DNA from: Pseudomonadota bacterium
GTDB lineage: Bacteria > Pseudomonadota > Gammaproteobacteria > Acidiferrobacterales > Sulfurifustaceae
Reading direction: 5' to 3'
Length of the DNA stretch: 64,000 bases
Assembly: GCA_040755435.1 (NCBI GenBank)
Contig: JBFMBB010000002.1
Coordinates: 8,415-72,414 of the forward strand
Shown: piece by piece, positions 47,306 through 57,119 of the stretch
Numbering within the stretch: position 1 is the first letter of the stretch
Layout of the letters: every line of letters starts with the position of its first letter
Made by a program: the position numbers and the translations under genes
Notes under the pieces: model-generated
What the model was told of the DNA's origin: nothing
What the model saw: the letters and a program-made list of their open reading frames with translations, nothing else
Database searches by the model: none

Positions 47306-48325
47306 TTGCGCCACGCCTCTTTCTTCCGCGCCTCCTCCCTGTTTCTGTGCGTGACAGCCCTGTCATGCGGCATATCCCGGGCCGAAACCGCTATCGCGCC
47401 ACCCAGACCGCTGTACAGCTTCAACCAGAGTCCCCTGATACAGATCTATGGCCTGCCGGCCCTGGGGGCATCGCGGGTTCTGGGCCAGGGGGAATCTGCC
47501 TTGGCGGTCCATCTGCAGATTGCCAATCATTTCACCGGCACCAGCACCAGCTCCGAAACCCTCAGCCTGGACGGGGAAACCCGGCGCCTGACGCTGCACT
47601 GGCGTCAGGGCCTGCCCGGAAACCGGGAATGGGGCATTGAGCTGCCGTATGTATCGCACAATGGCGGGTTTCTCGACATGTCCATCGAAGAATTCCACGA
47701 CATACTGGGCCTGCCCCAGAACGGCCGCACCGACCTGCCGCGCAACCGCATCGATTTCCGTTACGCCCGCCAAGGCGTGAATCTGGTCAATCTCGACCGC
47801 GCCGTCAGCGGGGTCGGCGATGTGCGCCTGTCGGCCGCCATCCCGCTGGCTGCGGAGCCGGCATCCGGCGCTTACACCGCGGCCTGGCGCATGAGCCTCA
47901 AGCTTCCCACCGGGGACGCGGACGAGCTGCTGGGCAGCGGCAGCACCGATCTGGCCGGCTGGCTGAGCGCGGCCACGACGCGCGCGCCGGACAAGTGGAA
48001 CCTGTATGGTGGCGGTGGGCTGCTGATGATGAGCGAAGGCGATGTCATACCGTCACAACAGCGCGGTCTTGTCGCATTCGGCACTCTGGGACTCAGCCAG
48101 CGATTCTTTCCGGCGGTGACGGTCAACGCGCAGCTGGACTTCCACAGTCCGTTCTACAGCGACAGTGGTCTGCGACAACTGGGAAGATACGCCGCGCAGG
48201 GTTTGCTCGGCCTGGACTGGGAGTTCGCGCCGCGGAAGTTCCTGGCGTTCTCGATCTCGGAAGACATGGTGGTCGGCGCGGCGCCCGACGTGGCCTTCAA
48301 TCTTTCTCTGGCCATGCCCCTGTGA
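47306..48325 (+). CDS. Outer-membrane beta-barrel protein (DUF3187-like)
   Basis: Signal peptide, NQSP..IYGLP, GGFLD..IE.FH...GLPQ and LKLPTG. Confidence 0.7.
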   Translation: MRHASFFRASSLFLCVTALSCGISRAETAIAPPRPLYSFNQSPLIQIYGLPALGASRVLGQGESALAVHLQIANHFTGTSTSSETLSLDGETRRLTLHWRQGLPGNREWGIELPYVSHNGGFLDMSIEEFHDILGLPQNGRTDLPRNRIDFRYARQGVNLVNLDRAVSGVGDVRLSAAIPLAAEPASGAYTAAWRMSLKLPTGDADELLGSGSTDLAGWLSAATTRAPDKWNLYGGGGLLMMSEGDVIPSQQRGLVAFGTLGLSQRFFPAVTVNAQLDFHSPFYSDSGLRQLGRYAAQGLLGLDWEFAPRKFLAFSISEDMVVGAAPDVAFNLSLAMPL

Positions 48326-49559: not shown

Positions 49560-49916
49560 ATGCGAATCGTCGGTTGGTTTAAAACTGCGGTTCTGTGCCT
49601 GGCACTGCCGGTGCTGCTTTCCGCCTGTGGCGGCGGCGCAGAAAGCCCCCCATCCGCGAATTCCCTGCCAAACGCCGCCATCCTGACGTGGGATGCCGTC
49701 GCCGCCACCAATCTCTCGGGCTATCGTGTTTATTACGGCACGTCGCCGGGAAGCTACCAGCAGGCCCCCGGGCAAGGATTGAGCGTCGGTAATATCACCG
49801 CCTATACGCTCACGGGGCTGAGCAACGGCACCAGATACTATTTCGCCGTGACCGCCTTCGACACGGCGGGCAATGAAAGCGGTTACTCGAACGAAGTTTT
49901 CAAGGACATTCCCTGA
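49560..49916 (+). CDS. Small FnIII-domain lipoprotein
   Basis: Lipobox LSAC; LTW...GYRVYYG...GL.NGTRYYFAVTAFD..GNES. Confidence 0.85.
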   Translation: MRIVGWFKTAVLCLALPVLLSACGGGAESPPSANSLPNAAILTWDAVAATNLSGYRVYYGTSPGSYQQAPGQGLSVGNITAYTLTGLSNGTRYYFAVTAFDTAGNESGYSNEVFKDIP

Positions 49917-49917
49917 C
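49677..49917 (+). repeat. 241-bp exact direct repeat, copy 1 (FnIII cassette including stop codon)
   Basis: Base-by-base identical to 52772-53012. Confidence 0.95.
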
Positions 49918-50073
49918 TTAAAGAAGCGCCATCGGCGACGGCAGGAAACTCCCCGAGATATTCATGGCTGCCGCCCCACGCTCACTGTATCGATCTCCCC
50001 GGAAAAGATAGACTGGAAACCCCGGCCCGGCGCAGCGCAACAAGGCGCGGTCATTTGCACGGATTTTCATTTC

Positions 50074-51474
50074 ATGAAGTCTCCCCATCTGGCCGTACGC
50101 GCAAAAATATTCTCCCTGCTTTTTCTCGGCCTCTTCGTTTCCGTTGTGCTGTCTCCCGCCCGGGTCAATGCGGCGCCGGATTACCCCCTGAAACTGAGTT
50201 CCAGTGGACAATATCTCGTGGATCAGGCCAATCGGCCTTTTTTCATGAATGGCGACACGGCGTGGTCGCTGATTTCCCAGCTCTCCCGGGCGGAGGCGGA
50301 CATCTATTTGTCTGACCGCGCAAAGAAGGGATTCAATCTTGTCCTCGTAAATCTGATTGAGCACAAATTCTCCGACAACGCCCCGGCCAATCACGCCGGT
50401 CACGCTCCGTTTGCCGGCGCCGGCAACTTCAACGCCCCCACCGAGGAATATTTCGCCCACGCCGATTGGGTCATCAGGAAGGCCGCGGAAAAAGGCATCG
50501 TTGTCCTGCTGGCCCCGATTTATCTGGGATACGACTGTGGCGATCAAGGCTGGTGCGCCGCTGTAAAATCGAGCTCCCCGGCCACCATGCGCAATTACGG
50601 CCGGTATGTGGGCAAGCGCTACAGGAACTTCCCGAATATCATCTGGCTCATCGGCGGCGATGCCAATCCGGTGGCCCACGGCGTGGCGGCAAAACTGCGT
50701 GAATTCGTTGCCGGTTTGCGGGAAGCCGACACCGTCCATCTGATAACCGCGCATAACGCGCGCAATCTGGCGGCCATGGATATATGGACCACGGATTCAT
50801 GGCTGGATATCAACAACATCTACACGTCGGGCAACGAGCACCAGGCTGCGTTGACGCAGTACCACCGGTCCGGCGCCAAACCGTTCTTTCTCCTTGAAAG
50901 CAACTACGAGAATCAGCCCGGCATTACCCAGCTCAATTTGCGGCAACAGGCCTACTGGTCCGTGTTATCCGGCGGCACCGTGGGACACATATTCGGAAAT
51001 TGTCCCATGTGGCATTTCGACGCGCCTTCCGCGTCGAGCTTTTGCTCCGGCTCCACCTGGAAATCGCAACTCGACTCCACCGGATCGACCACGCTGGCGC
51101 ATGTGGGCCGGCTGTTTCGCTCGCGGGCCTTTCATCTGCTCGTGCCCGATCGGACGCACTCCGTGCTGACTGCCGGCTTTCAGTCCGGCGCAAGCCAGGC
51201 AGCGGCGGCCCGGGCAAGCGACGGGTCGACGATCATCGCCTACATTCCCACGAGTCGCGCCGTCACCATTGACCTCGCGAAAATCGCCGGTGCTTCTGTG
51301 CGCGCCTGGTGGTTCAACCCGCGCACGGCGGCGGCAACGCTGATCAGCACCTATCCCGCCCGGGGCACAATGGCCTTCACGCCGCCCGGTTCCGGCGACT
51401 GGGTGCTTGTGCTGGACAATGCCGCGCTGCAACTGCCTGCTCCCGGGAAAAGATCGCGGGTCCCGGCCTCCTGA
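50074..51474 (+). CDS. Secreted DUF4038 (apiosidase-like glycoside hydrolase) plus collagen_bind_2-like domain protein
   Basis: Signal peptide, PFFMNGDTAW, NIIWLIGGD, KPFFLLESNYE, WWFNPR and DWVLVL; start at ATG 50074. Confidence 0.75.
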   Translation: MKSPHLAVRAKIFSLLFLGLFVSVVLSPARVNAAPDYPLKLSSSGQYLVDQANRPFFMNGDTAWSLISQLSRAEADIYLSDRAKKGFNLVLVNLIEHKFSDNAPANHAGHAPFAGAGNFNAPTEEYFAHADWVIRKAAEKGIVVLLAPIYLGYDCGDQGWCAAVKSSSPATMRNYGRYVGKRYRNFPNIIWLIGGDANPVAHGVAAKLREFVAGLREADTVHLITAHNARNLAAMDIWTTDSWLDINNIYTSGNEHQAALTQYHRSGAKPFFLLESNYENQPGITQLNLRQQAYWSVLSGGTVGHIFGNCPMWHFDAPSASSFCSGSTWKSQLDSTGSTTLAHVGRLFRSRAFHLLVPDRTHSVLTAGFQSGASQAAAARASDGSTIIAYIPTSRAVTIDLAKIAGASVRAWWFNPRTAAATLISTYPARGTMAFTPPGSGDWVLVLDNAALQLPAPGKRSRVPAS

Positions 51475-51736
51475 TAAGCCTCCGTGCGGTCTCCCAATGA
51501 TGTCAGATCGAGCGATCATTTTCGCCAGACGCACGGTCATCTGAAGCAACACATCGCGCGCCGTCAATCTGCGCTCACCTCCCGAAAGTCGGTTTTTGCT
51601 TAGGTGCAAGGCAAATATCGATTATCTTTACGTCAACAAGATTCTGCGCTGCTGAAAAACCGAAAAATCGCGGCGGATGTTTTTTAACAATCGAGGGAGG
51701 CGGTCTTCGGGCGGGGGATGGAAACAAGGAAGTAGA

Positions 51737-53011
51737 ATGGAACTGTTTCACCCCGGTTGCACGCGAATCGTCAATTCGTTTAAAGCTGTTGTTTTTGTTC
51801 TGATGCTCCCGGTGCTGCTTGCCGCCTGCGGCGGTGGCGCCGAAGCGGAAACTCAGGCGAGTGCGATCCCGGCCGGCACCACGAGCCCGGACACCACCTC
51901 GCCCAGCGTCCAGATCACCAGTCCTTCCGGCAATACCACCGTGTCCACCAGCACTATCACGCTGTCCGGCACCGCAAGCGACAACGTCGGCGTGACGCAG
52001 GTGACATGGCGTAACACCACCACGAACGCCTCCGGCACCGCGGCGGGGTTGAACAACTGGTCGGCACTGAATATACCGCTGCAAAGCGGCAGCAACACCC
52101 TCACGGTGACGGCACGTGACGCGACCGGCAACCAGAGCAGCGCTTCGCGGACCGTGACTTATAATCCGCCACCTCCGCCTCCGACGCCGGACACCACGGC
52201 ACCCAGCGTGCAGATCAACAATCCGTCAGGCAACGTTACCGTGACGACGAGCAGCATCGCTTTGTCCGGCACCGCAAGCGACAACGTCGGTGTGACGCAG
52301 GTGACATGGCGTAACACCACCACGAACGCCTCCGGCACCGCGGCGGGGTTGAACAACTGGTCGGTGGCGAGCATTCCCTTGCAAAGCGGCAGCAACACCC
52401 TCACGGTGACGGCGCGCGACGCGGCGGGAAACCAGAACACCGACACGCTGACGGTGACGTATAACGCGCCGGATACCACCCGGCCGACGGTGACCATCAG
52501 CCTGCCCACCAGCAGCGCCACCTACACCACGAGCAGCAGCACCCTGAGCCTGGGCGGCACGGCCTCGGACAACGTCGGCGTGACGCAGGTGACCTGGTCG
52601 AACAGCCGGGGTGGCAGCGGCAGCGCCAGCGGCACGACCTCCTGGAGCGTCGCCGGCATCACCCTGCAGGACGGCAGCAACACCCTCACGGTGACGGCGC
52701 GCGACGCGGCGGGAAACCAGAACACCGACACGCTGACGGTGACGTATAACGCTCCGGTGATATCGAACTCTGCCATCCTGACGTGGGATGCCGTCGCCGC
52801 CACCAATCTCTCGGGCTATCGTGTTTATTACGGCACGTCGCCGGGAAGCTACCAGCAGGCCCCCGGGCAAGGATTGAGCGTCGGTAATATCACCGCCTAT
52901 ACGCTCACGGGGCTGAGCAACGGCACCAGATACTATTTCGCCGTGACCGCCTTCGACACGGCGGGCAATGAAAGCGGTTACTCGAACGAAGTTTTCAAGG
53001 ACATTCCCTGA
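51737..53011 (+). CDS. Lipoprotein with three Ig-like (Big) repeats and a C-terminal FnIII domain
   Basis: Lipobox LAAC; three DTT.P.V.I...GTASDNVGVTQVTW...G.NTLTVTARDA.GNQ repeats; start at ATG 51737 after an AGGAAG RBS. Confidence 0.88.
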   Translation: MELFHPGCTRIVNSFKAVVFVLMLPVLLAACGGGAEAETQASAIPAGTTSPDTTSPSVQITSPSGNTTVSTSTITLSGTASDNVGVTQVTWRNTTTNASGTAAGLNNWSALNIPLQSGSNTLTVTARDATGNQSSASRTVTYNPPPPPPTPDTTAPSVQINNPSGNVTVTTSSIALSGTASDNVGVTQVTWRNTTTNASGTAAGLNNWSVASIPLQSGSNTLTVTARDAAGNQNTDTLTVTYNAPDTTRPTVTISLPTSSATYTTSSSTLSLGGTASDNVGVTQVTWSNSRGGSGSASGTTSWSVAGITLQDGSNTLTVTARDAAGNQNTDTLTVTYNAPVISNSAILTWDAVAATNLSGYRVYYGTSPGSYQQAPGQGLSVGNITAYTLTGLSNGTRYYFAVTAFDTAGNESGYSNEVFKDIP

Positions 53012-53012
53012 C
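52772..53012 (+). repeat. 241-bp exact direct repeat, copy 2
   Basis: Identical to 49677-49917. Confidence 0.95.
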
Positions 53013-53175
53013 ACGGTGCCAACAACCGGAGCAAGAAATGTCTTCTACTCTGCCGGTAAACTACAATATTATTACGCCCATGTATCCGGTTGACCGCGAC
53101 AAACACGGCTTTTCCGACACTAAAATCCAGCGCACTGCCCGGCCAGGGCATGCAACAGAAACCCGAGGTTCATAT

Positions 53176-54648
53176 ATGACAATCAAAGCTTCATTTTGGC
53201 GACTGCCCGTCATCCAGGGGCTCATCATGGCGGTTGCCATCATGACGGGACAGGCCTTGATCGCCTCACCGGCCTGGGCCGCGACGTACTATGTCGCAAC
53301 CAACGGCAGCAACACCAGCGCGGGAAGCTCCGCGGCTCCGTTTCAGACCATCCAGAAAGGCCTCTCGGTACTTTCGGCGGGCGACACCCTGGTGATCCGT
53401 AACGGCACCTACAGCGGCTCTTCGAACAGCCTGGCGAATCTCCCGAGCGGCTCCGCCGGGAATTACATTACGATCATGGCCGAAAACGAAGGCAGCGTCA
53501 TCATCACCGGCGGGCTGGGAATGTCCAACTCAAACCAGTATCTGATCTTTCAGGGCCTTCGCCTTCAGGATACCGGCCAAAAAAGCATCCTCGGGAATCA
53601 TATCAAGTGGTTCAGGACTGAATTCAAGGGCGGGCCATCTGGCGGCAACACCATGGCGGTGGTGGTGGGAACGAACGATGTCGGCACGACGGCCGATATC
53701 CTGCTGGAGGATGTCTGGGTGCACGGATTCGGCGGCCGCTACAAGATTCTCGTATACAACTCGACGCGGGTGGTCATTCGCCGGGCCGTCACAAGATACG
53801 ACGGCACCGTCACGGCGATAGGTGAACCGCAAGCCAATATTACCGTTTACGATTCTGACAGCGTGGAAGTCCAGAATTCCATCGCCATTGACGGTATTAC
53901 CGGCGCGGGCGCGGAGGAGTTTGTCGCGGCCTTTTACAACATCTGCAACGGCACCGGTTCTGTGCCGGTGAGGAATTACACTCATCGCGGCAACATCGCG
54001 ATTAACCCGACGCGCTTTACCATGGGGTCCGAGGGACAATGCACCATTACCAATCAGGTGATTACGGATATTGCTGGCGCGGGAGGCACTTATGGTATTT
54101 CCCAGCTCAAAGGCAGCGGTACCCAGTACACCCGCATAACGCTCATCGGATCCAAGGGTGATGGTTTTGGCATCTTCGGCGGCAGCGCCAAGGTTCAGGA
54201 TTCAATCGTGGCGAATCAGTCCGGCCAGGCGTACAACGGGGTAACCCCGCTAACTTCGGTTGCCTACAACAACAGCGGGGGGAATTCGGGTGGGATCGTG
54301 CTGAACCCGTTTACCAGCGGCCTGCTTTATCTGCCGAGAATCGAGGCCGCATCCGTGCTTGCTGCCGGCGGAACCGCGGGTCAGCGCGGCGCCCAGATCG
54401 TCAAACGCATTGGCACGCCCGGAACTCTTTACGGGGAATCGGGTTATTCGACCACGACCGCCACGGATCTCTGGCCATGGCCCAATGAGGCCCGGATCAA
54501 GAAGGAAATGTGCACCGATGCGGGTGTCACGCGGGGTTTCTGCTCGTCCGCCTCGCTGACGGCCTATGTCTTCGGCTATCTCGGCAATCCGAATCCCTAT
54601 GGCAGCGTGATATCGCTCTCGCCGCCGGGCAACCTGCGGGTGCAATAA
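53176..54648 (+). CDS. Secreted right-handed beta-helix (pectin-lyase-like) protein
   Basis: Signal peptide ending AWA, YYVATNGSN..G...PFQTIQKG....GDTLVIRNGTY, and Gly/Asn-rich beta-helix turns; start at ATG 53176. Confidence 0.75.
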   Translation: MTIKASFWRLPVIQGLIMAVAIMTGQALIASPAWAATYYVATNGSNTSAGSSAAPFQTIQKGLSVLSAGDTLVIRNGTYSGSSNSLANLPSGSAGNYITIMAENEGSVIITGGLGMSNSNQYLIFQGLRLQDTGQKSILGNHIKWFRTEFKGGPSGGNTMAVVVGTNDVGTTADILLEDVWVHGFGGRYKILVYNSTRVVIRRAVTRYDGTVTAIGEPQANITVYDSDSVEVQNSIAIDGITGAGAEEFVAAFYNICNGTGSVPVRNYTHRGNIAINPTRFTMGSEGQCTITNQVITDIAGAGGTYGISQLKGSGTQYTRITLIGSKGDGFGIFGGSAKVQDSIVANQSGQAYNGVTPLTSVAYNNSGGNSGGIVLNPFTSGLLYLPRIEAASVLAAGGTAGQRGAQIVKRIGTPGTLYGESGYSTTTATDLWPWPNEARIKKEMCTDAGVTRGFCSSASLTAYVFGYLGNPNPYGSVISLSPPGNLRVQ

Positions 54649-55997: not shown

Positions 55998-57119
55998 TTA
56001 CCGGGCGCCGCCTCCGGCCGCGGCCAGATCGCGAATCCTGCAGAACATCTCCCACGCCGAGACGTAGCGCAGCGACATCCCCGGACGATCGCGGAATTCC
56101 GTCTCCAGGCCGGTCCACAATGTCTCGAAACCTTCATCGAGCAGCATATTCATGGTTTCGTCTTCCGCGCCGTGCGTATGCAGCTTGATGAAGACATGCT
56201 GTTCAGCGCCGGCGACCCGCGGGGCATGCTTGAACCACAGGGGCACACGATCCTGAGAAGGCGGCGCGTCATGGGAGATCTCGCCGTTTTCAATTTTCGG
56301 CAGGAGCCCGGCCTTGCGTCGCCGCCAGTTGAAAGCGAGCGGTCCCTGGATCAACAGCAGCTCGCCGGGCTGCAGCCATTCCCCGACGCGTATGTCCCGG
56401 CCGGTGTCATGGGACTTCCGTTTCCCGTCCACGCCGCGGGCGGCGTAGATCGAGTTGATCTTGCGGGTCTGCGTGTCGCTGGGCGCCGATGGCATGGTAA
56501 GGTCGGCGCGGCAACCGGTCGCCACCAGCACCCCCAGCTCGTTATCCACGCCGCACCACTTTCCATCCGGCCTCGAGTTGTCCAGCGCCCAGTTGCCGTG
56601 AATGAAGCAGTAGGCCGGATCGATGTCGCCGTCGGCGCGCAGAAGCCCGTGGCGCTGCCGCAGCGTGCTGCAGAAACCGACCAGGGCCGCCCGCAGCTTC
56701 TCGGCGGTGTCGTCGTGGTGGTGATAATGCACCTCGACGCCGGCAAAGCCGCGACGCTCCAGATCGCCCAGCCGGTCGAGAATCTGCGCGTCGTATTCCT
56801 CGATCGGATAGAAGAACGTGTGCTTCGGATGGCCGCCAAAACTGTCGACATGGCGTGACGCCAGCACTGGATACCTTTCCGCCCAGCGCGCCACTTTTTC
56901 ACGCGCGCGCTCCGTATCCTTGCCTCCCCCGAACGGCTCAAAATGATCCGCGAAACAGACATAGACGGTTATGTTGCCTCCCCCGTCCGCGGCCGGGCGC
57001 GCCATGCGCTGCCGGAGATAGCTCGGCAACCAATACTGCAGATTGCGCGCGCGGATCACCCCAACGATCCCCAGCGCGACGGCGACGCCCAGGAACAGGA
57101 CAACCAGAACCCACATCAT
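55998..57119 (-). CDS. Membrane-anchored polysaccharide-deacetylase-like hypothetical protein
   Basis: N-terminal TM; His/Asp-rich motifs CFADHFEP, EVHYHHH, FIHGNWALDN and FIKLHTHG; sits within the EPS cluster. Confidence 0.6.
   Translation of the reverse strand: MMWVLVVLFLGVAVALGIVGVIRARNLQYWLPSYLRQRMARPAADGGGNITVYVCFADHFEPFGGGKDTERAREKVARWAERYPVLASRHVDSFGGHPKHTFFYPIEEYDAQILDRLGDLERRGFAGVEVHYHHHDDTAEKLRAALVGFCSTLRQRHGLLRADGDIDPAYCFIHGNWALDNSRPDGKWCGVDNELGVLVATGCRADLTMPSAPSDTQTRKINSIYAARGVDGKRKSHDTGRDIRVGEWLQPGELLLIQGPLAFNWRRRKAGLLPKIENGEISHDAPPSQDRVPLWFKHAPRVAGAEQHVFIKLHTHGAEDETMNMLLDEGFETLWTGLETEFRDRPGMSLRYVSAWEMFCRIRDLAAAGGGAR

Follow-up and report, generated by a model that had tools for sequence, protein, structure and literature searches.

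A probable split-FnIII plug and socket for docking secreted enzymes on envelope lipoproteins at a bacterial exopolysaccharide locus

Organization of the locus

The window analysed here is a stretch of 64,000 nucleotides (nt) from a Pseudomonadota bacterium of the family Sulfurifustaceae (assembly GCA_040755435.1, contig JBFMBB010000002.1), and all its positions are counted from the first letter. Positions 49560-54648 of the plus strand hold four genes as read from open reading frames (ORFs) and Pfam matches, namely a short lipoprotein, an enzyme similar to glycoside hydrolase family 140 (GH140), a long lipoprotein and a beta-helix enzyme (Table 1). Both lipoproteins end in a fibronectin type III (FnIII) domain without its first strand, strand A, while the beta-helix enzyme ends in what reads as an isolated copy of that strand. 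A first-pass annotation of this DNA had speculated that the tail of the enzyme completes the FnIII fold of the lipoprotein in trans. On the sequences and structural models described below, we consider it likely that the two proteins form such a split FnIII, with the tail as plug and the A-less lipoprotein as socket, and the pairing is probably an undescribed way of docking enzymes on the cell envelope. The literature searched contained no account of such a system, although absence there is no proof of novelty.

Table 1. Features of the four-gene group (aa, amino acids; Ig, immunoglobulin-like; SPI, signal peptidase I).
Feature	Position	Strand	Remarks
Short socket lipoprotein	49560..49916	+	118 aa; signal peptide, lipobox LSAC (Cys23), 16-aa linker, A-less FnIII up to the stop
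Lipoprotein signal peptide of the short lipoprotein	49560..49628	+	lipobox L-S-A-C at its end; sequence reading
A-less FnIII, copy 1 (strand B AILTW to strand G ..NEVFKDIP)	49671..49916	+	repeat D3
Secreted GH140-like enzyme, apiosidase-like catalytic domain and Collagen_bind_2	50074..51474	+	plug tail lost in this lineage
Out-of-frame GH140 tail remnant ..LISLRAVSQ-stop	51471..51500	+	translation; 1-nt deletion near 51466
Long socket lipoprotein	51737..53011	+	424 aa; lipobox LAAC, three Big_7 Ig modules, 5-aa VISNS junction, A-less FnIII
Stalk of three tandem Ig repeats (Big_7 / Glucodextran_B-like)	51882..52765	+	~95-100 aa each; repeat families D1, D2, D4
A-less FnIII, copy 2	52766..53011	+	near-identical to copy 1; repeat comparison
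Secreted right-handed beta-helix enzyme	53176..54648	+	490 aa; SPI signal peptide
Plug tail SLSPPGNLRVQ-COOH, orphan FnIII strand A	54613..54645	+	stop codon 54646-54648

The start of the long lipoprotein is probably at 51737 (MELFHPG...LLAAC/GGG) and that of the beta-helix enzyme probably at 53176, with the SPI signal cleaved at AWA/ATYYV.

The terminal FnIII domain of the lipoproteins

The short lipoprotein reads MRIVGWFKTAVLCLALPVLLSAC/GGGAESPPSANSLPNAAILTWDAV...ESGYSNEVFKDIP-stop. The lipoboxes of both lipoproteins conform to the signal peptidase II pattern [LVI][ASTVI][GAS]C and are followed by Gly-Gly-Gly, and both proteins are predicted to be lipidated. Under the Lol +2 rule, the Gly residues at +2 to +4 of the short lipoprotein point to sorting to the outer membrane. 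Both proteins close, right at the stop codon, with one and the same FnIII module, AILTWDAV...NESGYSNEVFKDIP, and in the long one the last Ig strand (..TVTYNAP) is separated from AILTW by nothing but VISNS. The span of this module from strand B to strand G and stop, the five-residue junction and the SLSPPGNLRVQ end of the secreted beta-helix protein in the next gene had all been pointed out in the first-pass annotation, and the sequences bear out each of them. An FnIII strand A typically reads P-x-x-P-x-[NG]-L-x-V. Pfam fn3 (PF00041, gathering cut-off 25 bits) matches the short lipoprotein with 35.5 bits (profile 10-81 of 84) and the long one with 33.0 bits (profile 11-81 of 84), and since the match begins only at profile position 10-11, the strand-A positions (consensus PsaPsnlsv) are missing in both.

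The mature short lipoprotein was modelled by AlphaFold2 (AF2) from a 70-sequence alignment with a mean predicted local distance difference test (pLDDT) score of 81. Instead of the seven strands of a single-chain sandwich (A-B-E / C-C'-F-G), the model contains six, B 17-21, C 30-38, C' 52-55, E 59-63, F 69-79 and G 91-95, with a pLDDT of 81-92 in the six-strand domain and no partner present; the first-pass annotation had proposed this strand count as a check, and the result is the one its reading predicts. Mature residues 1-12 (CGGGAESPPSAN) have a pLDDT below 50. The linker segment PPSANSL, which had been considered as a degenerate strand A, is not supported in that role, given its pLDDT below 50 and the low-complexity Gly/Ser/Pro linkers of any length that relatives have in its place. 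The signature residues of the FnIII core, W22 in strand B, Y33/Y36 in strand C and Y71/Y72 (YYFAV) at the tyrosine corner of strand F, are invariant or nearly so in the 70 sequences. Top Foldseek matches of the model are FnIII domains and monobodies. Another match is 4m6a, an FnIII in which chains exchange their N-terminal strands.

A total of 158 relatives of the short lipoprotein were found and the best 120 were examined for architecture. The terminal position of the FnIII is constant, it being always the last domain, and the protein ends 70-77 residues past the strand-B Trp in 117 of the 120 (..NES.[YF]SNEVFKDIP-stop). Most have a lipobox and a Gly-rich linker; before the FnIII stands either a lipobox with a Gly/Ser/Pro-rich linker of any length or a stalk of Ig or complete FnIII domains. 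No genuine strand-A motif precedes the terminal FnIII in the 112 relatives with at least 15 residues upstream, and two loose regular-expression matches among them directly abut strand B. A profile search with the socket alignment returned, at E <= 1e-30, 1,262 library proteins that each represent a 50%-identity cluster. As its top-scoring matches are giant multi-FnIII arrays, this number can serve at most as a rough ceiling for the size of the socket family.

Long tandem arrays of the same FnIII subfamily (GYRVYYG-type) can also begin with an A-less repeat, which follows the signal peptide directly (P0374, P0454). In P0374 an extra A-like segment, ..PTDARTLATSD.., comes after the last core. 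The unit that repeats seems to be [B..G + A], an arrangement in which one molecule could donate a strand to the next, head to tail. In another locus (L127, 4585-6432) a socket lipoprotein appears split, with two complete FnIII domains followed by a frameshifted Pro/Arg-rich stretch and the socket part called as a separate gene whose start lies inside an FnIII domain.

The two socket modules of the window (49671-49917 and 52766-53012 in the repeat comparison) are 99% identical over 247 nt with one base different, and this identity has sharp limits, strand B on one side and the stop codon on the other. The stalk repeats, with three Pfam Big_7 matches, are spaced 300, 300 and 285 nt and share 74-88% identity. 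In Sulfuricaulis limicola (AP014879.1), the closest sequenced relative, the locus is fully syntenic and the proteins are 80-93% identical; its protein P0121 shares 88% identity with the short lipoprotein and a 423-aa gene is the counterpart of the long one. Within S. limicola the paired socket modules match each other in the same way (L079, 10110-10357 and 13215-13462), while ~22 positions differ between the two genomes, in both copies. Identity within and divergence between genomes show gene conversion (concerted evolution) of the two modules, by which the short and long tether would be kept at the same specificity.

The C-terminal tail of the beta-helix enzyme

The beta-helix enzyme ends ..YGSVISLSPPGNLRVQ-stop, or in longer context ..NPNPYGSVISLSPPGNLRVQ-stop, the tail as isolated peptide being GSVISLSPPGNLRVQ. 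Pfam gives Pel9A-like and Chondroitinase_B N-terminal matches. The AF2 model (82 sequences) is an all-beta coil, a parallel beta-helix, with pLDDT 92, and its last 10 residues have pLDDT 51 and no secondary structure, which makes the tail a free end outside the enzyme fold. Foldseek matches are distant (10-17% identity) and comprise GH136, polysaccharide lyase (PL) families PL9 and PL6 and rhamnogalacturonan lyase; in its modelled fold the protein resembles right-handed beta-helix polysaccharide lyases and hydrolases, and it is a putative glycan-active enzyme.

Among the 120 best homologues (36-91% identity), ~55 have a linker of 8-15 residues and then, at the very end, the tail P-[SAN]-[AP]-P-[T]-[NG]-[LV]-x-[VA]-x-COOH. 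The stop follows exactly one residue past the last hydrophobic position in 45 of these 55, the last residue being variable (Q, E, D, R, N, S, L). Such conservation of the motif and its distance to the stop goes beyond chance. All tail-bearing homologues have an SPI-type signal peptide with ATYYV at the mature end. Eleven tail-less homologues are true lipoproteins, in which the Cys is followed by Gly-rich spacers or by one to three complete FnIII/Ig modules ahead of the beta-helix, and these lipoprotein-type homologues stop right past the core (..LGNGNPY). A complete FnIII comes after the same linker in P0042, L032 and L042 (..TTPPTSPTNLAANATSQSSITVSW..), and its start can be matched position by position with tails like ..TTPPSAPTNLRVS-stop, which indicates that the tail is homologous to FnIII strand A. 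Three other homologues (P0045, P0086, P0119) have dockerin-like repeats at the tail position. Tail-less homologues thus have a lipid anchor with a stalk, or else a whole FnIII or a dockerin where the tail would be, and the position past the core is a slot for anchoring modules.

Two other origins of the tail were rejected. A truncation artefact of this genome is at odds with the tail and stop position kept in ~55 homologues, and simple fission of an enzyme-FnIII fusion gene is at odds with the upstream position of the socket gene and its own lipoprotein signal; fission would also require the strand to have moved to the C-terminus of the other protein.

In L017 (10777-11394) a tail-less enzyme (..LGNPSPVTSR-stop) is overlapped by an ORF in another frame that ends ..VMPNPPALPAAVHA; the sequence suggests a frameshifted and decaying tail, with a socket lipoprotein 6 kb away in the locus. 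Homologues of Xanthomonadales type (Tahibacter, Rhodanobacteraceae, Dokdonella) share another, conserved ending, ..PPEIY..[IL]F.[ND]GF[EQD]-stop (P0089, P0090, P0097, P0099, P0105; L020, L026, L028, L050), and this tail may be another orphan strand or docking tag.

Tail loss and tail spread in other enzymes

The assignment of the second enzyme to GH140 comes from Pfam (PF13204, 1.1e-71; PF12904, 2.7e-18), and homologue records carry the name 'glycoside hydrolase family 140 protein'; the activity is a predicted one. Its S. limicola orthologue ends ..LPAPGALSQAPAAPTNLRVVS-stop (..LNLPAPGALSQAPAAPTNLRVVS-stop in longer context) with a tail, while the window protein ends ..LPAPGKRSRVPAS-stop without one. 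Aligned with S. limicola, the window sequence lacks one base near 51466. This deletion puts a TGA in frame, and the remnant behind it has acquired the motif-destroying changes P to L, T to I, N to S and V to A. An independent metagenome contig (X1, 98% identical) has the same frame, and two others (X2, X3) show a further 1-nt deletion in the remnant at 51484. The frame shared by independent contigs shows the tail loss to be real, and an assembly error was rejected for the same reason. As read from this comparison, the window GH140 is a protein that carried a plug tail ancestrally and then lost it, so that in this genome a working tail is left on only one of two enzymes. Since the motif decays fast once untranslated, the tail is otherwise under selection.

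The tail ends ~30 of 120 GH140 homologues. Among the rest, some end at ..LPAPG and some have a dockerin (P0271, P0313), while four are tail-less lipoproteins with a stalk of Big_2 type. A scan of metagenome contigs for DNA encoding APTNLR[VI]x-stop yielded ~25 real proteins from at least eight further families, among them legume-lectin-like proteins with CHB_HEX_C, three kinds of beta-helix, a PL14-like protein and several without a family, all ending ..P.APTNLRVQ-stop. Judged by this distribution of the motif, the plug is a portable tag on unrelated enzyme families. Small (~130 aa) secreted Ig-like proteins with the same ending ..P.APTNLRVQ-stop are also present (L103 6100-6498; L108, minus strand; L122 3655-4035; L116), those of L108 and L122 adjoining small lipoprotein and holin-like genes, phage-derived in appearance.

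Fit and co-occurrence of tails and sockets

The complementarity of tail and socket can be followed with the fn3 profile. A socket alone scores 35.9 bits over profile 13-81, and joining the window tail to either socket raises this to 46.5-46.6 bits over profile 1-81 (+10.6), whereas a scrambled tail gives 35.9 bits and no gain. For the L001 pair the score rises from 34.1 bits (profile 11-82) to 42.8 bits (profile 2-82). Sockets fall into three sequence classes (I, II, III), each with its own tail type: sockets ending ..SNEVFKDIP go with tails ..P.NLR[VI][QVK], those ending ..KTIQ with ..PTNVVA[DE] or ..PSSLVAL, and those of the form Y.V.W...T[IA][IT][DE] with longer tails ..P.[GN][IV].[VI][IT]K[N]. 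A complete tandem array of the same FnIII subfamily (P0392) has the in-chain sequence ..APQNLQA-TAGNQQ-VTLTW... The residues of the A-B loop (..SN.A) stay with the sockets, and the tails break off at the beginning of that loop, which amounts to a nick of the domain within it. A conserved Lys/Asn pair (Asn of the tail, Lys of ..FKDIP in the socket) occurs in classes I and II only and is absent in class III.

For the linkage of the two partners, 78 genome loci with a beta-helix homologue were fetched, 14 tail-bearing and 64 tail-less. A lipoprotein ending in an A-less FnIII is present in 7 of the 14 tail-bearing loci versus 1 of the 64 tail-less ones (Fisher p = 9.5e-6, uncorrected for relatedness). 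The socket lies immediately upstream of the tail-bearing enzyme in six of the seven (L001, L002, L005, L022, L024, L033; the seventh locus is L015), and the sole tail-less locus with a socket is L017, where the tail is apparently frameshifted. The reverse look-up gave the same picture, as six out of six socket lipoproteins on long contigs (L127-L132) are directly followed by one or two tail-ending secreted proteins, these partners being from other families (concanavalin/PL14-like, 280-390 aa). In two loci from the DNA pattern (L107, L124) an FnIII-ending protein is directly upstream, which adds two further enzyme families. The co-occurrence of PxxPxNLxV tails with A-less FnIII lipoproteins, which the first-pass annotation had put forward as a genome-wide check, is thus found in both directions, and nothing that it had listed as a refutation was observed. 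Pairs of a long and a short socket occur in three lineages (window and S. limicola, L033, L132).

Genomic surroundings

The four-gene group lies at the edge of an exopolysaccharide (EPS) locus. On its upstream side lie genes for a GGDEF-EAL protein, a DUF3187 protein and an NAD-dependent sugar epimerase. On its downstream side the minus strand carries glycosyltransferase (GT) genes of families GT4 and GT2, Wzy_C, more GT genes and an Asn-synthase-like gene. The loci of the reverse look-up and the DNA pattern have a comparable context, with Poly_export, GNVR, Wzy_C and GT genes, and the exosortase EpsH in L128. The DUF3187 protein (47306-48325), probably an outer-membrane protein, stands just 5' of the EPS genes; S. 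limicola has it as well, and L053 contains a relative. On the minus strand, 55998-57119 encodes a 373-aa protein with an N-terminal membrane helix and without a Pfam or NCBIfam match; it is kept between the GT4 and GT2 genes in S. limicola and L015-type loci, and this conservation marks it as an uncharacterised component of the EPS locus.

Proposed mechanism

In the mechanism we propose, a socket would consist of a lipid anchor and, at the other end of a three-Ig stalk or a short, flexible linker, a terminal FnIII genetically without strand A, and a cargo enzyme of a catalytic core, a linker of 8-20 residues and the plug P-x-[AP]-P-x-[NG]-[LV]-x-[VA]-x-COOH. Both partners would be exported by Sec; the lipoprotein would be lipidated and, with Gly at +2, probably reach the outer membrane. 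After folding of the enzyme, the free plug would insert beside strand B, parallel to strand G, and complete the sandwich, so that the enzyme is held non-covalently on the envelope next to the products of the EPS assembly and export genes. We infer this physical complementation, as well as the compartment, which would be the periplasmic face of the outer membrane or the cell surface.

FnIII topology (A antiparallel to B and parallel to G) would place the enzyme at the stalk-distal pole, like the next domain of a tandem array, while the C-termini of plug and socket and the incoming stalk or linker would converge at the proximal pole. The strict stop positions of both chains could be accounted for by this meeting of three chain ends at the stalk-proximal pole. 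One socket type could serve several enzymes, and a short and a long socket of identical specificity would offer two tether lengths, ~16 residues or three Ig domains, one keeping an enzyme close in and the other positioning it on a stalk. Alginate, Pel, Psl and cellulose systems have periplasmic hydrolases and lyases, and the likely role here would be to keep EPS-trimming enzymes near the export apparatus, provided that the enzymes do process EPS.

A wider reading, to which we give somewhat better than even chances, is that of a widespread, modular natural docking code of split domains. It would combine an 8-11 residue strand-A plug on many glycan-active families with A-less FnIII lipoprotein sockets of defined stalk length, form a Gram-negative counterpart of cohesin-dockerin that sets the distances of EPS enzymes from the membrane, and comprise at least three orthogonal classes; A-less cores that themselves end in a plug may polymerise head-to-tail like pili.

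Alternative explanations

Several observations weigh against completion of the socket by the tail. Half of the tail-bearing genome loci have no socket within 10 kb (L040, L054, and the Nitrospira loci L041, L043, L044 and L049), several of them lying at contig ends, and several metagenome tail proteins have no socket upstream; without a nearby socket the partner would need to be encoded elsewhere. The window GH140 has no tail, yet the socket upstream of it is kept. Class III sockets get no Pfam fn3 match. The AF2 alignment held A-less sequences only, in which a non-conserved in-chain strand A could not have appeared, and the A-less first repeats of P0374 and P0454 imply that the six-strand form may be stable without a partner. 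The four Nitrospira homologues end ..DT[IV]PPA[PS]PKGL[ST]LTIQ-stop; no A-less FnIII gene is present in the short upstream stretch available for them, and the gene upstream encodes Big_7-like Ig modules with a different C-terminal domain.

Socket-less loci are what one would expect if the tail were a C-terminal sorting, secretion or processing signal for another machine (an export step, a protease or a PDZ-type reader) and the FnIII lipoproteins were independent EPS-binding or scaffold operon mates. Its occurrence on many unrelated secreted proteins, as with sorting tags, and the place of the pairs in EPS/exosortase-type loci, where C-terminal tags are common, fit that explanation as well. We nevertheless regard it as unlikely, since the tail has neither the hydrophobic helix nor the basic cluster of PEP-CTERM-type tags; it stops 1-2 residues past NLRV instead of extending into such a helix and cluster or into an 80-aa C-terminal domain (CTD), and no NCBIfam tag model matched it among PEP-CTERM, MYXO-CTERM, GlyGly-CTERM, LPXTG and the CTD of type IX secretion. 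Moreover, the last residue varies, unlike that of PDZ ligands, a variability for which recognition by a PDZ domain or a C-terminal protease was rejected. A sorting signal also leaves aside the homology of the tail with strand A in the whole FnIII domains of homologues, its fit to the fn3 profile exactly where the socket match stops and the agreement of tail class with socket class. Alternatively, the six-strand FnIII may be self-sufficient, the missing strand being normal for a first or only domain, and the tail may bind by loose edge-strand augmentation, elsewhere or not at all. This we find quite unlikely. The A-less first repeats of tandem arrays and the confident AF2 folding of the six-strand domain without a partner would agree with it, but it gives no account of an orphan strand A with fixed stop in more than ten enzyme families, nor of the linkage statistics and the six out of six reverse look-ups, and the extra A-like segment after the last core of P0374 fits strand donation.

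Two further possibilities were considered. Complementation could be real and transient, the socket acting as a folding, export or escort partner like a pilus chaperone and not as a permanent anchor. Complementation by the chaperone in chaperone-usher pili is indeed transient and one socket serves several enzymes; against this, homologues reach the same end with permanent lipid anchors and stalks, and long stalks (three Ig or five cadherin-like domains) suit positioning, not chaperoning, so that we see little chance for it. That the tail is a functionless vestige of a truncated C-terminal FnIII is, to our mind, highly improbable: motif and stop position are kept across homologues of 36% identity and across unrelated families, and the rapid decay of the motif after frame loss shows selection otherwise, even if some homologues do have a complete C-terminal FnIII and tails can decay (window GH140, L017). 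Taken together, docking of the enzyme by completion of the A-less FnIII remains the reading we prefer.

Significance

To our knowledge, fold completion by a donated strand has so far been known mainly from pilus assembly. If the plug and socket act as proposed, they would be a new and genetically simple way of attaching bacterial enzymes to the envelope, with strand donation as a general anchoring module. They would explain thousands of 'hypothetical' small FnIII lipoproteins and provide a rule to predict which secreted enzymes are cell-bound. The short and long tethers point to a spatial organisation of EPS processing. A small natural pair of peptide tag and receptor, in several apparently orthogonal classes, would also be of use in displaying and assembling proteins.

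Comparison with known systems

The system belongs to neither the type V pili nor the cohesin-dockerin pairs, although these two are the closest known relatives in mechanism and function, respectively. By analogy, the nearest mechanism is the strand exchange of type V pili (FimA/Mfa1 of Porphyromonas gingivalis), where a lipoprotein pilin has its N-terminal strand replaced by a C-terminal donor strand and the extreme C-terminus is essential (PMC13655056). In both cases the acceptor is an outer-membrane lipoprotein with a beta-sandwich, predicted as such here; in the pilus a C-terminal donor stands in for its N-terminal first strand, and the sequences of the present pair fit the same logic. In the pilin, however, that strand exists and is cut by gingipain, whereas here it is absent from the gene; the pilin fold is transthyretin-like and the present one FnIII by Foldseek; and the donor there is another pilin, leading to a polymer, while here it is an enzyme in a proposed 1:1 tether. 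No sequence homology to the pilins was detected, no pilin family matched in Pfam or NCBIfam, and the fold and Arg site of type V pilins were not found. Chaperone-usher pili likewise have an incomplete Ig-like fold that is completed by a strand of another polypeptide. There the C-terminal G strand is missing and the donor is an N-terminal extension or the G1 strand of the chaperone, in contrast to the missing strand A and C-terminal tail donor of this system; strand G is present in the sockets (..NEVFKDIP), and the locus has no chaperone or usher gene or domain.

In function, the closest analogue is cohesin-dockerin, where a small C-terminal module on many carbohydrate-active enzymes binds a cell-bound scaffold, and homologues of both window enzymes have a dockerin at the very position of the tail (P0045, P0086, P0271, P0313). 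The dockerin is an autonomous, Ca-binding domain of ~60 aa that binds a complete cohesin, whereas an 8-11 residue strand would complete an incomplete domain here; the hosts differ as well in being Gram-negative (Sulfuricaulis-like and others) with a lipoprotein as scaffold, and Pfam finds no dockerin or cohesin in the window proteins.

Engineered split FnIII, SpyTag/SpyCatcher, which is a split CnaB2 domain, and the N-terminal strand swap of the consensus FnIII 4m6a are known cases in which an Ig-like or FnIII domain receives a terminal strand from another chain. Those are artificial or crystal-packing forms, while the present one would be natural, selected and widespread. No evidence was found for a covalent isopeptide lock of the SpyTag kind, since the Lys/Asn pair is confined to classes I and II; with its residues absent in class III we keep it only as a remote option.

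The lipoprotein-fused homologues, with lipobox, FnIII/Ig stalk and catalytic domain in succession (P0006, P0031, P0058, P0071, P0328 and others), bring together the same enzymes and the same stalk modules. They differ in that anchor and enzyme are one polypeptide, the FnIII is complete and the tail is absent. Given the same enzymes and stalks, location and role are presumably the same, reached there within a single chain and, as we propose, in two pieces here.

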